Shown piece after piece: positions 34,004-51,354 of a DNA stretch of 64,000 bases. The position numbers and the translations under genes were made by a program. The DNA is taken from assembly GCA_963737065.1 (NCBI GenBank), contig CAVTRC010000001.1, forward strand, positions 2,433,064 to 2,497,063, read 5' to 3'. The notes under the pieces were generated by a model. That model saw nothing but the letters and a program-made list of their open reading frames with translations, did no database searches and was not told where the DNA came from. Origin of the DNA: Candidatus Eremiobacteria bacterium. GTDB taxonomy: Bacteria > Vulcanimicrobiota > Vulcanimicrobiia > Vulcanimicrobiales > Vulcanimicrobiaceae. Numbering within the stretch: the stretch's first letter is position 1; every line of letters starts with the position of its first letter.

Positions 34004-35074
34004 ATGAGCCTGCTTTTCTCGCCGATCGCGCTGCGCGGCGTCGAGTTCGACAATCGCATCGTCGTCTCGCCGATGTGCCAGTACTCGTCGGAGAACGGCA
34101 ACGCGAACGACTGGCACGTCGTTAACCTGGGCCACTACGCGGTTTCCGGTCCGGCACTCGTGTTCTTCGAAGCGACGGCGGTAAGCCCGCAAGGACGGAT
34201 CACCGACCGCGATCTCGGGCTCTATTCCGATGAGAATCAAGAAGCGATGGCGCGCGTCGTCGCATTTATACGCCGGTGGACGCACTCGAAAATCGGCGTG
34301 CAACTCGCGCACGCTGGAAGAAAGGGGTCGACGCTGCCGCCCTGGGAGGGTGGCGCGGCCGCGCCGCCGGAGCGGTCGTACGAGACATTCGCTCCGTCTG
34401 GGATTCCATATACATCCGATTGGCGCACCCCGGCGGCGCTCGATGAAGCCGGATTACGCGGCGTGCGTGACGACTTCGTGCGCGCGGCGAAGCGCTGCGT
34501 CGAACTCGGCATCGACGTGATCGAGTTGCATTGCGCTCACGGGTACCTGGGCCATCAATTTCTCTCGCCGCTTTCGAATCATCGCACGGATCGATACGGC
34601 GGCTCGCTTCAAAACCGTATGCGTTTTCCGATCGAGCTTTTTGATGCGGTGCGCGCCGTGTGGCCGGCAGATAAGCCGCTCGGCGTACGCATTTCCGCGA
34701 CCGATTGGGCCGACGGCGGCTGGGATATCGAACAATCGATTGCATTCGTCGGTGAACTAAAAAAGCGAGGATGCGATTTTGCCGACGTGTCGAGTGGCGG
34801 TCTCGTGCCGCAGCAGAAAATTACCGTCGGTCCCGGCTATCAGGTTTCATTTGCCGCACAGGTAAAACACGCGACCGGCATCCCCACGATGGCGGTCGGC
34901 ATGATCACGGACCCCCGGCAAGCCGAAACGATTCTCGGTAGCGGTCAGGCCGATTTCATCGAACTTGCGCGCGGCTTCATCCGCGATCCGAACTGGACGT
35001 GGGATGCGGCGGATGTGCTCGGCGCGCAGGCGTTTGTTCCGAACCAATATCAGCGCGGACGAAACCGCCACTAG
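34004..35074 (+). CDS. NADH:flavin oxidoreductase / old yellow enzyme (YqjM-like)
   Basis: NRIVVSPMCQYS, QLAHAGRK, HCAHGYL, RTDRYGGS. Confidence 0.92.
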   Translation: MSLLFSPIALRGVEFDNRIVVSPMCQYSSENGNANDWHVVNLGHYAVSGPALVFFEATAVSPQGRITDRDLGLYSDENQEAMARVVAFIRRWTHSKIGVQLAHAGRKGSTLPPWEGGAAAPPERSYETFAPSGIPYTSDWRTPAALDEAGLRGVRDDFVRAAKRCVELGIDVIELHCAHGYLGHQFLSPLSNHRTDRYGGSLQNRMRFPIELFDAVRAVWPADKPLGVRISATDWADGGWDIEQSIAFVGELKKRGCDFADVSSGGLVPQQKITVGPGYQVSFAAQVKHATGIPTMAVGMITDPRQAETILGSGQADFIELARGFIRDPNWTWDAADVLGAQAFVPNQYQRGRNRH

Positions 35075-35348
35075 CCGCATCTCTAGTAAAGAATCCGGAC
35101 ACGGCGAGAACCGTTAGCAACCCAATTAAAACGGCGATCGGCGACGCGATCGCCGTAGCGATCGCAACTTCGCGCTGCTTGTCACGCAAGATAGAACGAT
35201 CCGCGCGTTCCGTCGCCGCAGGGGCCGACGTGACGATCGGAGGCATTGCCGAAAGCGTTTTGCCAAGCCATGCGCCACTGACGAAACACGCGATCACGAA
35301 CAGGGCAGCGATGAGCCAGAGTAGCGCCGGTAATCGAACGCCGTTCAC
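34977..35348 (-). CDS. Hypothetical two-TM membrane protein
   Basis: GTG start overlapping upstream stop with GAGGAG SD; two hydrophobic segments; 3' end overlaps the OYE gene. Confidence 0.55.
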   Translation of the reverse strand: MNGVRLPALLWLIAALFVIACFVSGAWLGKTLSAMPPIVTSAPAATERADRSILRDKQREVAIATAIASPIAVLIGLLTVLAVSGFFTRDAASGGFVRADIGSEQTPARRAHPPHPTSSSDRG

Positions 35349-35530
35349 TCCTCGCCGACTTTCGCGAGCAGCGCGTCGATTACGCACGTCCAGCGACCAT
35401 CGTCGTGCGAGCGCGAACGTCGTAATGTGGTCACCGTGCCTTTGCGATAGTTCTCGAGCGCGACGACGTGTTGACGGCGTGTGCCAAGCGCCGCAAAATC
35501 CGCGGCGCGAAGCCATTGCTTCGAAACCAT
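35345..35530 (-). CDS. Hypothetical 61-aa protein (possible gene remnant)
   Basis: AGGAG SD 6 nt before ATG; SD pairs with upstream leader codons. Confidence 0.5.
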   Translation of the reverse strand: MVSKQWLRAADFAALGTRRQHVVALENYRKGTVTTLRRSRSHDDGRWTCVIDALLAKVGEE

Positions 35531-35537
35531 ATGGGAC

Positions 35538-35584
35538 TCCTACGCGTAAGAGGTGTTGGTTTGTTTCGCCTAAGAAGCGTAGGA
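35538..35584 (-). promoter_or_regulatory. Anti-SD/SD hairpin coupling the RAPP leader to the downstream gene
   Basis: mRNA UCCUACGC (35584-35577) is complementary to GCGUAGGA (35545-35538). Confidence 0.65.
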
Positions 35585-36211
35585 AGGCGGCGCGCGTCCG
35601 CCCGCGGTGCAGAGCTCGGGTGCGACTTGTTTGCGCGGAACGATCCGCAAACGCGGTACGATGGCCGTCGCGATGTCGTCGCGTGTAAGCAGCGCGCGAA
35701 TGGTTTTCACGACGCGCAACGTCGCCCATGCTAGTTCGTGCATCACCGCAGCTGCGGCGAAGAACGTAACGATACACGTCACCAGGTGAACTCCGAGCGC
35801 GACCGCCACCGGCGCGCCCAGCCAGATCATTCCGCCGAGTGCGTGTCCTGCGACGATGGTTTGTTCGCACGTCTCCATTGCATAGAGGATGAAGAGTTGC
35901 GCGGCGAACGTCGCGGGCAACAACAGCGATGATCGTGAACGCAGCGCGCTGTCCCAACGACGCAAACGGTCTTTCATCATGTCGCCGTCGCCGTCGAAAT
36001 GCGCGCGAATCCGTAAGGCGACGTGGATTGCAACCGCGATGAGACCCACGCTGAGCGCAGGCAGTACGTCGAGATTGCTGTGATCGGTGTAGTGACCGCG
36101 CCCGAACACGCCGGCATTCGAGGCGGCTTCAAGCAACGGGTCTGCGACGGCGGCCGCGATCACGGCGACAGCGAGCGAAAACCACAACCGAACGGAGCAA
36201 ACGAAGGACAC
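35570..36211 (-). CDS. Multi-pass membrane protein ending in RAPP (putative ribosome-arrest leader)
   Basis: About 4 hydrophobic segments, GVFGRGHYTDH, C-terminal GGRAPPSYAS. Confidence 0.75.
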   Translation of the reverse strand: MSFVCSVRLWFSLAVAVIAAAVADPLLEAASNAGVFGRGHYTDHSNLDVLPALSVGLIAVAIHVALRIRAHFDGDGDMMKDRLRRWDSALRSRSSLLLPATFAAQLFILYAMETCEQTIVAGHALGGMIWLGAPVAVALGVHLVTCIVTFFAAAAVMHELAWATLRVVKTIRALLTRDDIATAIVPRLRIVPRKQVAPELCTAGGRAPPSYAS

Positions 36212-36297
36212 GGCCTTGTCCCCTTAAGCGATGCGGGAGCGAGGTCCTTGAACGTCGCGCAGCGGTCCGTAACAAAGGCGTAGAAGAAGAGCGACCG

Positions 36298-38181
36298 ATG
36301 CGCACGTTTTTCTTTACGGCCGCGACGGTATTGCTTGCGTTCATCACGGTGTGCGTGCCCGCACGCGCACAAGAGCCGTCACCGTCGCCAAGCCCTTCAC
36401 CCGGTTTTTCGACGTCGATGAGCGGCTCGAACGAATTCATCGATCAAGCCGCGAGCGGGCCCGGAATCACACCACCCGAAGCGCAGCCGTTTGCGGCAGG
36501 GCTGCCGCTTTCGCCGATGTCGCCGTACGATTGGTTTTCAAGCGCGCCGCTCACGCCGGGAATCGCGGGCGTCGGACAATACGAACTGACCGCGACCGAT
36601 CGCACGCGAAGGTTTACGGCGCAAGCGACGGTCGGATTGACGCTGATCGGCGGGGATGCAACCGCCGCGGCGTATTGGGGCGAACCGTTATTCGGTGACG
36701 CGAGCCCGCATTGGAATCATCTCTTCAATCCGCACATCGTCTTTCCGCAGAAGCCGGGAACCAACGACCTGATCGCCGGCGCGCTCGCGCTGCCGCTCGC
36801 AGCATCGGTTGCGCAAAACAACGGCGCGTGGCAAATTCGCGGCGGCTACTTGGATCTCGCGCAAACCGATCGCTTCGTATTCTCTCCGCCGGCCGTAACG
36901 AACGCGCTGCCGTCCACCGGCATACAGACCGCAGAGACGCTTGGACCGGGAATGCCGAGTCTCGAGACGTGGAACGCGCCACCGGTCTCGATGCAACTGC
37001 TCGGCGGGGATGCGCTCGTCAAGGTTCACTCGGCCGCGATCGAATTGACCGACGCGCTGCTGCCCTCGCTGCAGCAGACGGGTGTGCGGCTGCTCAACGG
37101 ATCGATCGTGATCGATCGCGGCGACTACGGGCGCTTCTCGGCGCAAATCTTGCACATCGACACGACCGGTGCGCCGATCGTTACGACGACATATTTCGGC
37201 GTCGATCGAACGTTGTACCCCGGGCCGCAAGGCCGTCTGTTTACCACCGTGCTCGCTAATCAACGACAAACACTTGCCGGCGTGAGCGCATTGGTTCATC
37301 CGGTCAAGGGGTACGACGCGCTCGTCGAATTCGGACGTGGATGGTACGATGCGCAGCCGGTCGCACAGCCGGGAACGAACGCGCCCGGCGAGTACATTCA
37401 TCTCGCGTTGACGCGTCGCTGGAACGCGACCGACGACGTCGGAATCGACTACTACCGCTTCGATCCGCGGTATGCGTCGATCGTCTTACCGTACGGGATT
37501 CCGGAGAACGTTTGGTCCGTGGCCTGGTCGTGGCCGGGACAGTGGCTGAAGTCAAATTATCAATCGGTCGACGATACGATCGTCGGGATCAACCGCGCCG
37601 GATTTCGCGCGCACGCCGATGTCCGGCGCGGAAAACTCGAACTGCACGCCGGCGCGTACGTTTGGCGGCAACTCGCGCCGTTCGACGCTCTAAACGCGGT
37701 CCAGGAAGGCTGGGCCGACGGATATTTTCTCCCGCAGACGGACGGTAACGGTACGCTCGGATGGCAGCGTCAAATCGCCATGTACGCCGCGTGGCATTTT
37801 CATCGCGACGACATCGTCGCGGACGGCGTGTGGGATCGTTCGTATCGGCCGATTCTGGGCGACGCGGCGGATTTGGTGAGCATGAATTATCCCGAAATCG
37901 TTCTGTCGATCCAGCATCATTGGAGTAAGAGGGCGATCGGCGTCATCGGGTACGGGCGATACTCGGCGAACGGGATGTGGGCGACGACGCCGGTACTCGG
38001 TATCTACGGCGCCGCATTCGTCGGCGCACAATTGGATTTCGGACGCCAGCAATTGCTCGTCCAGCTGCGACGTCAGGCTCTTACCGGTCTCCCGTCACAA
38101 CCCGGCGGTCCACCGCCCACGATGCGCGCGACCAGTGTGCTCGTCGACCAGCATTTCTCGACCGGCCCGCAGCCAAGGTGA
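36298..38181 (+). CDS. Hypothetical secreted/outer-membrane protein
   Basis: Signal peptide (ARA), PSPSPSPSP linker, Trp/Tyr/Gly-rich putative beta-strands. Confidence 0.7.
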   Translation: MRTFFFTAATVLLAFITVCVPARAQEPSPSPSPSPGFSTSMSGSNEFIDQAASGPGITPPEAQPFAAGLPLSPMSPYDWFSSAPLTPGIAGVGQYELTATDRTRRFTAQATVGLTLIGGDATAAAYWGEPLFGDASPHWNHLFNPHIVFPQKPGTNDLIAGALALPLAASVAQNNGAWQIRGGYLDLAQTDRFVFSPPAVTNALPSTGIQTAETLGPGMPSLETWNAPPVSMQLLGGDALVKVHSAAIELTDALLPSLQQTGVRLLNGSIVIDRGDYGRFSAQILHIDTTGAPIVTTTYFGVDRTLYPGPQGRLFTTVLANQRQTLAGVSALVHPVKGYDALVEFGRGWYDAQPVAQPGTNAPGEYIHLALTRRWNATDDVGIDYYRFDPRYASIVLPYGIPENVWSVAWSWPGQWLKSNYQSVDDTIVGINRAGFRAHADVRRGKLELHAGAYVWRQLAPFDALNAVQEGWADGYFLPQTDGNGTLGWQRQIAMYAAWHFHRDDIVADGVWDRSYRPILGDAADLVSMNYPEIVLSIQHHWSKRAIGVIGYGRYSANGMWATTPVLGIYGAAFVGAQLDFGRQQLLVQLRRQALTGLPSQPGGPPPTMRATSVLVDQHFSTGPQPR

Positions 38182-50659: not shown

Positions 50660-50714
50660 CTCCTCGGAACGTAACGTGCGTGTTGTTAAGCGGAAGTCAA
50701 CACGAGCCGAGGAG
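50660..50714 (-). promoter_or_regulatory. Anti-SD/SD hairpin coupling the RPPP leader to the TonB-dependent receptor
   Basis: mRNA CUCCUCGG (50714-50707) pairs with CCGAGGAG (50667-50660); inner stem CGUGUUG (50704-50698) / CAACACG (50685-50679). Confidence 0.7.
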
Positions 50715-51237
50715 GCGGACGCGTCACGATGCGCCGCGCGAGATGCGGCGTGACGATCGCCGGCGATGCATATCGCCGGACCACAAAGACCGTTCGAGGC
50801 GCGGTCGCGAGGCGGGAGATGGCGATCGCGCAGCACGCGAGCGCGCGTGCGGTGAGAACCGCGAGTCGCCGCAGCAAGATCGCTGCGGTCAGCATCACGA
50901 GCGAGATGATGAGGAATGAAGCCGGTCCGTGCGCGGGTTCGAGCGACTCGATGAAGGCGAACCAGACGCCGCCCGCCGCCGCTACGGCGCGAGCGCGCGG
51001 AATCCACGAACACAGCCGCGCGGCAAGGACGCTGCCTTGCGCGCAGTTTCCGCAACTGCCGAACGCCGCGACGATTGCCGCGACGAGAGCGCCGCCCGCG
51101 CCTGCGAAGGCGAAGATTGCGAGGGACTCATGATAGGCACCCGCCTCCATGTGGCCCTCGCCGAACCCGGCTGCGTGGGCAACCAGGGAGGCAAGCAGCC
51201 CTAGAATCAGGGCACCCGGCAACTGCCGGAGAGACAT
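50686..51237 (-). CDS. Multi-pass membrane protein with His motif, CxxC and C-terminal RPPP (putative ribosome-arrest leader)
   Basis: HAAGFGEGH...YHE, CGNC, about 4 hydrophobic segments, TRPPPRLVLTSA. Confidence 0.75.
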   Translation of the reverse strand: MSLRQLPGALILGLLASLVAHAAGFGEGHMEAGAYHESLAIFAFAGAGGALVAAIVAAFGSCGNCAQGSVLAARLCSWIPRARAVAAAGGVWFAFIESLEPAHGPASFLIISLVMLTAAILLRRLAVLTARALACCAIAISRLATAPRTVFVVRRYASPAIVTPHLARRIVTRPPPRLVLTSA

Positions 51238-51354
51238 CAGGGTTAGCTTTCTTGCGGGTCGCAGGTTTGGCCTTGAGCCCGCGTCGTATCCTTGGACCCC
51301 CAAGCCCTAGCCGAAGCCGCCGGACGTGGGAACGGAACCAGTGTAAGAGAGATC

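Follow-up and report, generated by a model that had tools for sequence, protein, structure and literature searches.

In SecM and MifM, arrest of the ribosome is released by a pulling force, and the Shine–Dalgarno (SD) sequence of the downstream cistron is unmasked. The stretch of DNA considered here, 64,000 nucleotides from Candidatus Eremiobacteria bacterium (GenBank assembly GCA_963737065.1, contig CAVTRC010000001.1, positions 2,433,064 to 2,497,063; hereafter the window), carries on its minus strand a gene for a 213-residue protein with four hydrophobic helices that ends shortly after the tetrapeptide Arg-Ala-Pro-Pro (RAPP), followed by a small open reading frame (ORF). Comparison with its relatives makes it fairly likely that this protein is a translation-arrest membrane protein of the RAPP type, coupled to unmasking of the downstream SD sequence. 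The unmasking probably operates in the manner of SecM, MifM and CutF.

RAPP-type arrest peptides have recently been described as a class and proposed to control a wide range of genes outside protein export (Fujiwara et al., EMBO J 2025, PMC12992588). Small secretory and membrane proteins show, close to their C termini, an enrichment of RAPP and RGPP, reported as the two most robust arrest cores, and the downstream genes encode TonB-dependent receptors, YcnI, PCu(A)C, PepSY, DsbA, thioredoxin and ECF sigma factors. Seven examples from S. lividans were confirmed, four of them with four transmembrane (TM) segments, and the route from arrest to control of the downstream gene is left open in the Discussion of that paper. 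The window locus shows the sequence features of this class: a C-terminal R-A/G-P-P core, a membrane protein of fewer than 300 residues whose localisation signals are its four TM helices, and a same-strand gene downstream. Further likenesses to the peptides as described there are TonB-dependent receptors among the downstream genes, depletion of RAPP-like motifs from the proteome, and conservation of polar and His residues in the membrane domain. There are also differences. No common family is detected by Pfam or NCBIfam, the S. lividans proteins being compared by description only, and whereas the mode of action was left open in that work, covariation between anti-SD and SD sequences here points to SD unmasking. 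A downstream gene of the LCP (LytR_cpsA_psr) or LytR type, the usual target in the present family, is absent from the main text and ten supplements of PMC12992588, which has four further large supplement files, and a literature search found no paper linking RAPP arrest with LCP or LytR genes. Elements of this kind have thus been described before (PMC12992588), and the present locus adds a new family to the class rather than a new principle.

Two regulators of the DUF2946 family (PF11162) come closest in detail. CruR of Bordetella pertussis (Roy et al., mBio 2022, PMC9426467) carries RAPP three to four residues from its C terminus, at a spacing from its periplasmic sensing element fixed to within 1-2 residues, and precedes a TonB-dependent transporter, as is seen here at three homologous loci (L025-L027) and at a second locus of the window, at 50.7 kb. 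CruR is described as a signal-peptide protein with a CXXC motif, working through Rho-dependent termination across a 162-bp spacer; the present family, unlike it, has four TM helices, no conserved CXXC in a 29-member alignment and no PF11162 match at E <= 1 in any of the 29 members. CutF of Rhodobacter capsulatus (also mBio 2023, PMC9973294) is the precedent for an SD stem-loop (Ozturk et al., bioRxiv 10.1101/2025.02.05.636593) and differs in being a DUF2946 member with an EF-P-dependent PPP motif and a multicopper oxidase target. SecM, MifM, VemP, ApdA and ApdP resemble the window protein in combining a C-terminal arrest sequence (RAGP/RAPP) with an N-terminal membrane or secretion signal (PMC7897499, PMC10987492, PMC10951233). 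Monitors of the SecM/MifM type are, however, short leaders with poorly conserved N-terminal parts and Sec or YidC genes downstream, whereas the present family has a conserved polytopic domain before the motif and an LCP enzyme as target. Judged by its sequences, it is neither a DUF2946 family nor a Sec/YidC monitor.

A membrane protein family with a C-terminal RAPP motif

The ORF at 36211-35570 was picked out by the original prediction, made from the DNA letters, as a membrane protein of about four hydrophobic segments containing GVFGRGHYTDH and ending GGRAPPSYAS. Translation (the end reads ...CTAGGRAPPSYAS before the stop), hydropathy (four helices) and an AF2 model all bear this out. Of 61 related genomes searched in six frames, 31, the window's own included, contain a homolog, and a profile built from 29 members found the family in 138 of the 301 genomes of the phylum. 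All 138 fall in three families of one class, with none among the 69 genomes of the other 18 families. Against 1.84 billion representative sequences the profile matched 511 clusters at E <= 0.001, of which 181 also pass E <= 1e-30, and every source name among the matches was 'hypothetical protein'. Pfam gave no meaningful match for the window protein or any of the 29 members, and NCBIfam none for the RAPP-family protein. Protein Atlas returned just 'hypothetical protein' clusters (Vulcanimicrobiota, Actinomycetota), to be taken as a lead and not as evidence. The searches establish the ORF as a genuine, conserved gene whose family has as yet no name.

The AF2 model, computed on the alignment, shows a confident helical membrane domain (mean pLDDT 81.7) with TM helices at residues 3-32, 49-70, 94-121 and 135-183, a fifth short helix (76-92) within the TM2-TM3 loop, and a disordered tail (pLDDT <50 at residues 184-198). 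In the PDB, the structure closest to the model by Foldseek reached E = 0.37, so that no fold could be assigned. Invariant in the 29 sequences are E116, L131 and P134 in the domain and P208 and P209 in the tail; E28, D43, Q105, M112, E113, Q117, W130, H142 and R206 are conserved in at least 90%, while the roughly 40 residues ahead of the motif are unconserved. By the positive-inside rule the conserved domain residues, E, D, H, M and Q among them, are predicted to gather where TM1, TM3 and TM4 approach the periplasm.

The cytoplasmic tail has a different character. Among 196 family members of 185-270 residues, a motif R[AGSP]PP within the last 16 residues is present in 187 (RAPP 159, RGPP 23, RSPP 4, RPPP 1), so that 182 carry RAPP or RGPP near the stop. 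The motif lies 1-12 residues ahead of the stop, most commonly four (81 of the 187), in an almost invariant G-x-R-A/G-P-P consensus. Its codons vary synonymously among loci (e.g. CGC GCG CCG CCT; CGT GCA CCG CCT; CGA GCG CCT CCG), which argues that selection acts on the peptide. The amino acids following PP are, by contrast, unconserved, though their nucleotides complement the cognate SD region. A ruler-like constraint links motif and membrane domain. Counted from the W of the periplasmic WLGxP loop that precedes TM4, the R of RAPP follows at a distance of 76-80 residues in 177 of 183 members, with a median of 78; the linker is fixed in length and variable in sequence, and its constancy recalls the spacing between sensing element and RAPP in CruR (PMC9426467). 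Taken together, the tail behaves, as far as sequence comparison can tell, like an arrest module rather than a folded domain.

To estimate avoidance of the motif elsewhere, 1,500 ORFs of the window's genome (GC content 61%), each 300 codons or longer and none overlapping another, stood in for the proteome. RAPP occurs 6 times against 21.3 expected (observed-to-expected ratio, O/E, 0.28), RGPP 3 times against 13.9 (0.22), RAGP 6 against 32.5 (0.18) and RSPP 3 against 10.8 (0.28), while AAPP (27 against 30.1; 0.90), GAPP (27 against 19.6; 1.38) and SAPP (O/E 1.31) are not depleted. Most of the few RAPP/RGPP matches lie within the first 76 residues of stop-to-stop frames and may precede the true starts. 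This agrees with the proteome-wide avoidance of translation-impeding RAPP-like motifs reported in PMC12992588. When all ORFs of at least 60 residues in six frames are counted, 58 have a RAPP tail, a number swamped by spurious ORFs, and just two of these have four TM helices.

Two side observations concern the family and its tail. At L015 (G017:C3:114973-117041) a full RAPP-family gene is followed by two same-strand partial matches (query residues 8-67 and 97-209) that have the look of a second copy, arranged in tandem and split. The window's genome has, outside the window, a frame of 144 codons (G000:C1:391887-392321, +) which contains one hydrophobic segment, ends ...ALAQRRAPPIARQNNAA and is a possible third RAPP-tailed ORF of the genome.

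Pairing between the tail and the downstream Shine–Dalgarno region

The codons after RAPP read TCC TAC GCT and, with the last T of CCT, give the stretch TTCCTACGC (35585-35577). Within it TCCTACGC (35584-35577) is the complementary stretch, to which the full arm adds one G-U pair; the partner is GCGTAGGA(G), at 35545-35537 on the minus strand. This partner contains the SD sequence AGGAG, six nucleotides from the ATG at 35530 that opens a 61-residue ORF (35530-35345). The original prediction had recognised this SD and described an exact complement to it at 35596-35585. The SD is confirmed and the complementarity is real, but these positions are the RAPP codons themselves, and the complement lies at 35584-35577, or at 35585-35577 with the G-U pair counted in; in all else the description holds. 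The RNAfold check proposed at the time, carried out on 35515-35625 (minus strand, 111 nt), returns the 9-bp hairpin in both the minimum free energy and the centroid structures. The locus thus has a predicted SD-sequestering helix with one arm (+6 to +14 from the first Pro codon) inside the footprint that an arrested ribosome would have.

The window helix alone is suggestive only. When the 33-nt segment after RAPP is compared with the 27-nt SD segment, an equally good helix arises in 97 of 5000 shuffles of the former and in 2.05% of 684 non-cognate pairs. It is the comparison across loci by which the pairing exceeds chance. Twenty-seven loci were compared, 26 with homologs of the RAPP gene and the 50.7-kb locus of the window, the score being the longest contiguous helix between two segments: P1-9..P1+24, numbered from the opening base of the first Pro codon (P1), and start-22..start+5. 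On 21 representative loci, after removal of six near-duplicates, cognate pairs score 7.69 against 5.52 +/- 0.25 for permuted ones, and none of 20,000 permutations reaches the observed value. The result is similar when the whole intergenic region serves as partner, without choice of an SD (8.14 against 6.28 +/- 0.24; 0/20,000), and the best helix then falls inside -20..+3 of the start in 20 of the 27 loci. A score of at least 7.5 is reached by 18 of 27 cognate pairs and by 5.1% of the 684 non-cognate pairs. That the homologs might lack RAPP or the hairpin, the outcome named in advance as damaging, is not observed, the motif being widespread and the pairing cognate across loci.

Different sequences sustain the pairing in different places. 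Anti-SD and SD arms are TTCCTACGC and GCGTAGGAG at the window locus, CTCCGTCC and GGACGGAG at L010, ATACCTGTTCG and CGAACAGGTAT at L022, TCTGTCGA and TCGACAGG at L024, GCTCCTTCA and TGAAGGAGT at L025, GTTCCTCG and CGAGGAAC at L017, and TCACGGTTCTTTA and TGGAGAACCGTGA at L029. Within the genus, a Ser-to-Phe change at L005 (TCC to TTC) preserves the helix through a G-U pair. The comparison indicates that SD pairing is cognate-specific and is kept by different sequences in different loci. At L029 (G042:C13), a distant member ending NRPPP, a 13-bp helix spans the GTG start codon itself, beyond the SD alone.

The position of the upstream arm fits a stalled ribosome. In the CruR toeprint the third and fourth RAPP codons sit in the P and A sites (PMC12992588), and with this assignment carried over, the two Pro codons of the window, Pro1 (35590-35588) and Pro2 (35587-35585), are predicted to occupy the P and A sites, respectively, at the stall. 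The upstream arm lies at +2..+20 from P1 in 22 of the 27 loci and within -6..+6 in the remaining five. A ribosome stalled in this register would cover most of it. In a partition-function model in which the stalled state keeps -12..+15 open, the mean unpaired probability of the SD is 0.29 in free RNA, 0.40 with a ribosome on Pro-Pro and 0.30 with a mock ribosome upstream; at the window locus it goes from 0.24 free to 0.41 stalled. The Wilcoxon test of free against stalled states gives p = 0.001 on the 21 loci, a value overstated by the kinship of the loci.

These elements can be assembled into a mechanism, in which SD unmasking is favoured because the anti-SD/SD pairs covary between loci. A ribosome translating the tail would come to a halt while the tRNA of the P site still bears R-A-P and the A site is occupied by Pro-tRNA. 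Covering about -12 to +15 nt around the P site, it would bar the anti-SD stretch from pairing, and the SD and ATG (35541-35528) would be freed for translation of the downstream cistron. Without the stall, termination would follow four codons later, the helix would re-form and initiation would stay low. Given the fixed spacing of 76-80 residues, TM4 would have just left the ribosome at arrest, with residue 208 at the peptidyl-transferase centre, and insertion of TM4 or its packing against TM1-TM3 would be the likely source of the pulling force that sets the duration of arrest. The original prediction had spoken of stall-dependent translational coupling; the stall-dependent part gains comparative support, and the process would be better termed stall-dependent SD unmasking.

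What the membrane domain might sense is a separate matter. The cluster of E, D, H and M residues predicted to face the periplasm suggests a metal or other small ligand, and the link to LCP enzymes allows a lipid-linked precursor as the sensed species. In an extended version, which we hold tentatively and regard as doubtful, the four-helix domain would be a co-translational sensor of a ligand or of the envelope state, setting synthesis of the LCP ligase through pulling force. E28, D43/H44, M112, E113, E116, Q117, H123 and H142 would then form a periplasm-facing site completed upon docking of TM4, the 78-residue ruler would time this docking exactly to the RAPP arrest, and occupancy by a metal, a lipid-linked glycopolymer or an undecaprenyl-pyrophosphate species would set the force. 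If true, this would be the first nascent-chain force sensor controlling cell-wall glycopolymer attachment and would define a polytopic 'sensor-leader' class distinct from single-signal arrest peptides.

Predicted target genes and competing explanations

A same-strand gene lies 31-117 nt downstream of the RAPP gene in all 27 curated loci (39 nt in the window). The survey of these genes, which the original prediction had called for, gives an LCP protein (PF03816) with an N-terminal anchor at 19 loci, a CarboxypepD_reg/TonB-receptor-like protein at three (L025-L027) and a secreted protein without family assignment at two (L029, L030); the tally leaves out L028 (an N-terminal fragment), L015 and L020, and L004 has a frameshifted LCP gene. 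No component of Sec or YidC is among the 26 proteins scanned, PF03816 LCP or CarboxypepD_reg/Plug receptor-like proteins being found downstream. In relatives, the switch would usually regulate an LCP enzyme and sometimes a TonB-dependent-receptor-like protein. The L029 downstream protein has a CxxCH haem-binding-like motif and no Pfam match.

The window genome (G000) departs from this pattern. An ORF does open at ATG 35530, as predicted, and proves to be an LCP remnant of 61 residues. Its likeness to the LCP N terminus is limited to MVSKQWLRAA..., and DNA comparison shows that about 1.1 kb of LCP gene has been swapped for about 168 nt in G000 and in its relative G003. Since just the first ~15 codons match LCP, the ORF is taken as the remnant of this ~1.1-kb replacement; it is 45% identical to the 58-residue ORF of G003. 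The one PF03816 gene of the genome is at another site, where it follows a radical-SAM gene and has no RAPP ORF beside it. In a third genome, G001, the LCP gene is frameshifted, and the RAPP gene and the SD helix are intact in all three. From these sequences the loss of LCP in the genus is independent or progressive, and in the window genome the switch persists without its usual target. It is predicted now to govern the 61-residue ORF and, through a GTGA overlap, a small protein with two TM helices encoded immediately after it. This 2-TM ORF follows an intact LCP gene in G005 and the frameshifted one in G001; homology is confined to its residues 1-91, and its 3' end (~34977) is uncertain.

Several points weigh against arrest with SD unmasking as the function of the window locus. 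The predicted target there is a remnant ORF. The 111-nt stretch folds no more stably than its shuffles (z = -0.16; 84/200 fold at least as well), although a z-score over the whole stretch is no guide to a helix of 9 bp in GC-rich DNA. In the model SD accessibility rises modestly on average and fails to rise in seven of 27 loci, with a clear fall at L005, L008, L012, L014, L024 and L030 and an unchanged or nil value at L016. Nine of the 196 members lack the motif, and the N-terminal domain shows much stronger conservation than that of classical arrest leaders, which leaves room for an independent function of the protein. As to the tests, downstream starts were curated by eye after the sequences had been viewed; the intergenic test removes this choice, its windows still being self-defined. 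Kinship among loci makes the permutation counts overstate independence. Finally, CCN Pro codons with pyrimidine-rich followers are inherently SD-complementary and raise the background, for which the permutation test controls solely across loci of the RAPP family.

Each of the competing explanations takes up some of these points. The stall might occur and its output be protection of the transcript from Rho-dependent termination or from decay, so that it would act on transcription of the downstream genes, with the helix secondary; CruR does work through Rho-dependent termination (PMC9426467), and the small change in modelled accessibility would be no difficulty for this account. Rho antagonism alone, however, leaves unexplained the cognate complementarity that falls on the SD region in 20/27 loci, and the intergenic regions are short compared with the 162 bp of CruR (PMC9426467). 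We regard it as fairly unlikely as an alternative; Rho protection and SD unmasking are not mutually exclusive and may coexist. An explanation without any stall, in which G-x-RAPP is a motif of the mature protein used for docking of a cytoplasmic partner or protease and SD pairing tunes basal translation or is a by-product of Pro-rich codons, appears distinctly improbable. It would account for the strongly conserved membrane domain, with E116, L131 and P134 invariant and Q105, M112, E113, Q117, W130 and H142 nearly so (at least 90%), as the seat of the protein's own function, and EF-P or ABCF factors could relieve the motif. On the other side, the variants are limited to RAPP, RGPP, RSPP and RPPP, the arrest-permissive set known from PMC12992588, the tail that holds them is disordered and fixes their spacing to the stop as well as to TM4, the genome depletes RAPP, RGPP and RAGP elsewhere, and the non-homologous family at 50.7 kb has converged on R-P-P-P with an anti-SD.

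It is very improbable, finally, that the window complementarity is a product of chance, or a relic of a module decaying and non-functional since the LCP deletion. The single-locus odds of about 2% and the fold z-score would suit chance, and the missing LCP genes of G000 and G003, with the frameshift in G001, would suit a relic. G000 and G003 nevertheless share the deletion and retain an intact RAPP gene (79% amino acid identity between the proteins) with RAPP, a 9-10-bp helix and an open frame of 61 or 58 residues that ends exactly at the GTGA overlap with the 2-TM ORF. Retention of motif, helix and open frame in both deletion genomes argues for continued use and looks like continued selection.

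If arrest with SD unmasking holds, the family would provide a clean natural data set on how arrest reaches the downstream gene, with hundreds of members, a ruler and covarying pairs. In a phylum that is still mostly uncultured, it would also bring the RAPP mechanism together with LCP enzymes, by which glycopolymers are joined to the cell wall. What sets it apart within its class is the LCP association, the explicit anti-SD covariation and the polytopic sensor-like domain.

The 50.7-kb locus and neighbouring features

The second locus had been taken from the start as independent and of the same geometry, and both statements hold: its anti-SD pairs with the SD arm ahead of the next gene (Table 1), and the two proteins are without detectable homology. 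Kinship of the two window ORFs as paralogs was considered and dropped, BLASTP and hhalign giving no homology beyond the tail. The downstream product is a Plug/CarboxypepD_reg TonB-dependent receptor. Sequence comparison indicates that the non-homologous 50.7-kb family has converged on R-P-P-P plus an anti-SD. Two unrelated RxPP families within one 64-kb window, and a switch that outlives its target, would mark the module as evolutionarily portable.

The 50.7-kb ORF heads a family of its own, present in 20 of 61 relatives and confined to family f1. Of the 19 loci read, 15 have a conserved [FL][AS]-R-P-P-P at a distance of 1-9 residues, mostly 3-9, ahead of the stop, and the gene usually precedes one for a signal-peptide protein.

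Table 1. Features of the RAPP locus and of the 50.7-kb locus, in window positions
Feature	Position	Strand	Basis
Putative arrest/sensor membrane protein gene, 213 aa, GTG start	35570..36211	-	homologs, profile alignment, AF2
R-A-P-P codons CGC GCG CCG CCT, residues 206-209 of 213	35585..35596	-	sequence
Candidate anti-SD arm TTCCTACGC: last base of Pro2 and Ser-Tyr-Ala codons, +6..+14 from Pro1	35577..35585	-	sequence, fold, helix comparison
TAG stop, 4 codons past PP	35570..35572	-	sequence
SD arm GCGTAGGAG, including SD AGGAG at 35541-35537	35537..35545	-	sequence, fold, helix comparison
61-aa ORF; first ~15 codons those of relatives' LCP gene, remainder unrelated	35345..35530	-	sequence comparison
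Small 2-TM ORF, GTG start overlapping 61-aa ORF stop (GTGA)	34977..35348	-	homology to relatives
Second 4-TM ORF, non-homologous, ending ...RRIVTRPPPRLVLTSA	50686..51303	-	sequence, hydropathy
Candidate anti-SD CTCCTCGG of second ORF	50714-50707	-	helix comparison
SD arm CCGAGGAG before TonB-dependent-receptor-like gene 50654-48270	50660..50667	-	helix comparison

The hairpin of the RAPP locus was also considered as a transcription terminator and rejected: its loop is about 31 nt, it has no U tract, and no terminator-like site was found on the minus strand between the RAPP ORF and the 61-residue ORF. Rfam gave zero matches at E <= 1 across 34900-36450. The stop-to-stop frame of the 2-TM ORF would overlap the 3' end of a convergent Oxidored_FMN gene (34004-35074, +) by about 98 nt (34977-35074). 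On the other side of the RAPP gene, 36298-38181 (+) encodes a divergent 627-residue protein without a Pfam or NCBIfam match, which has a signal-peptide-like N terminus and may be an outer-membrane or secreted protein.

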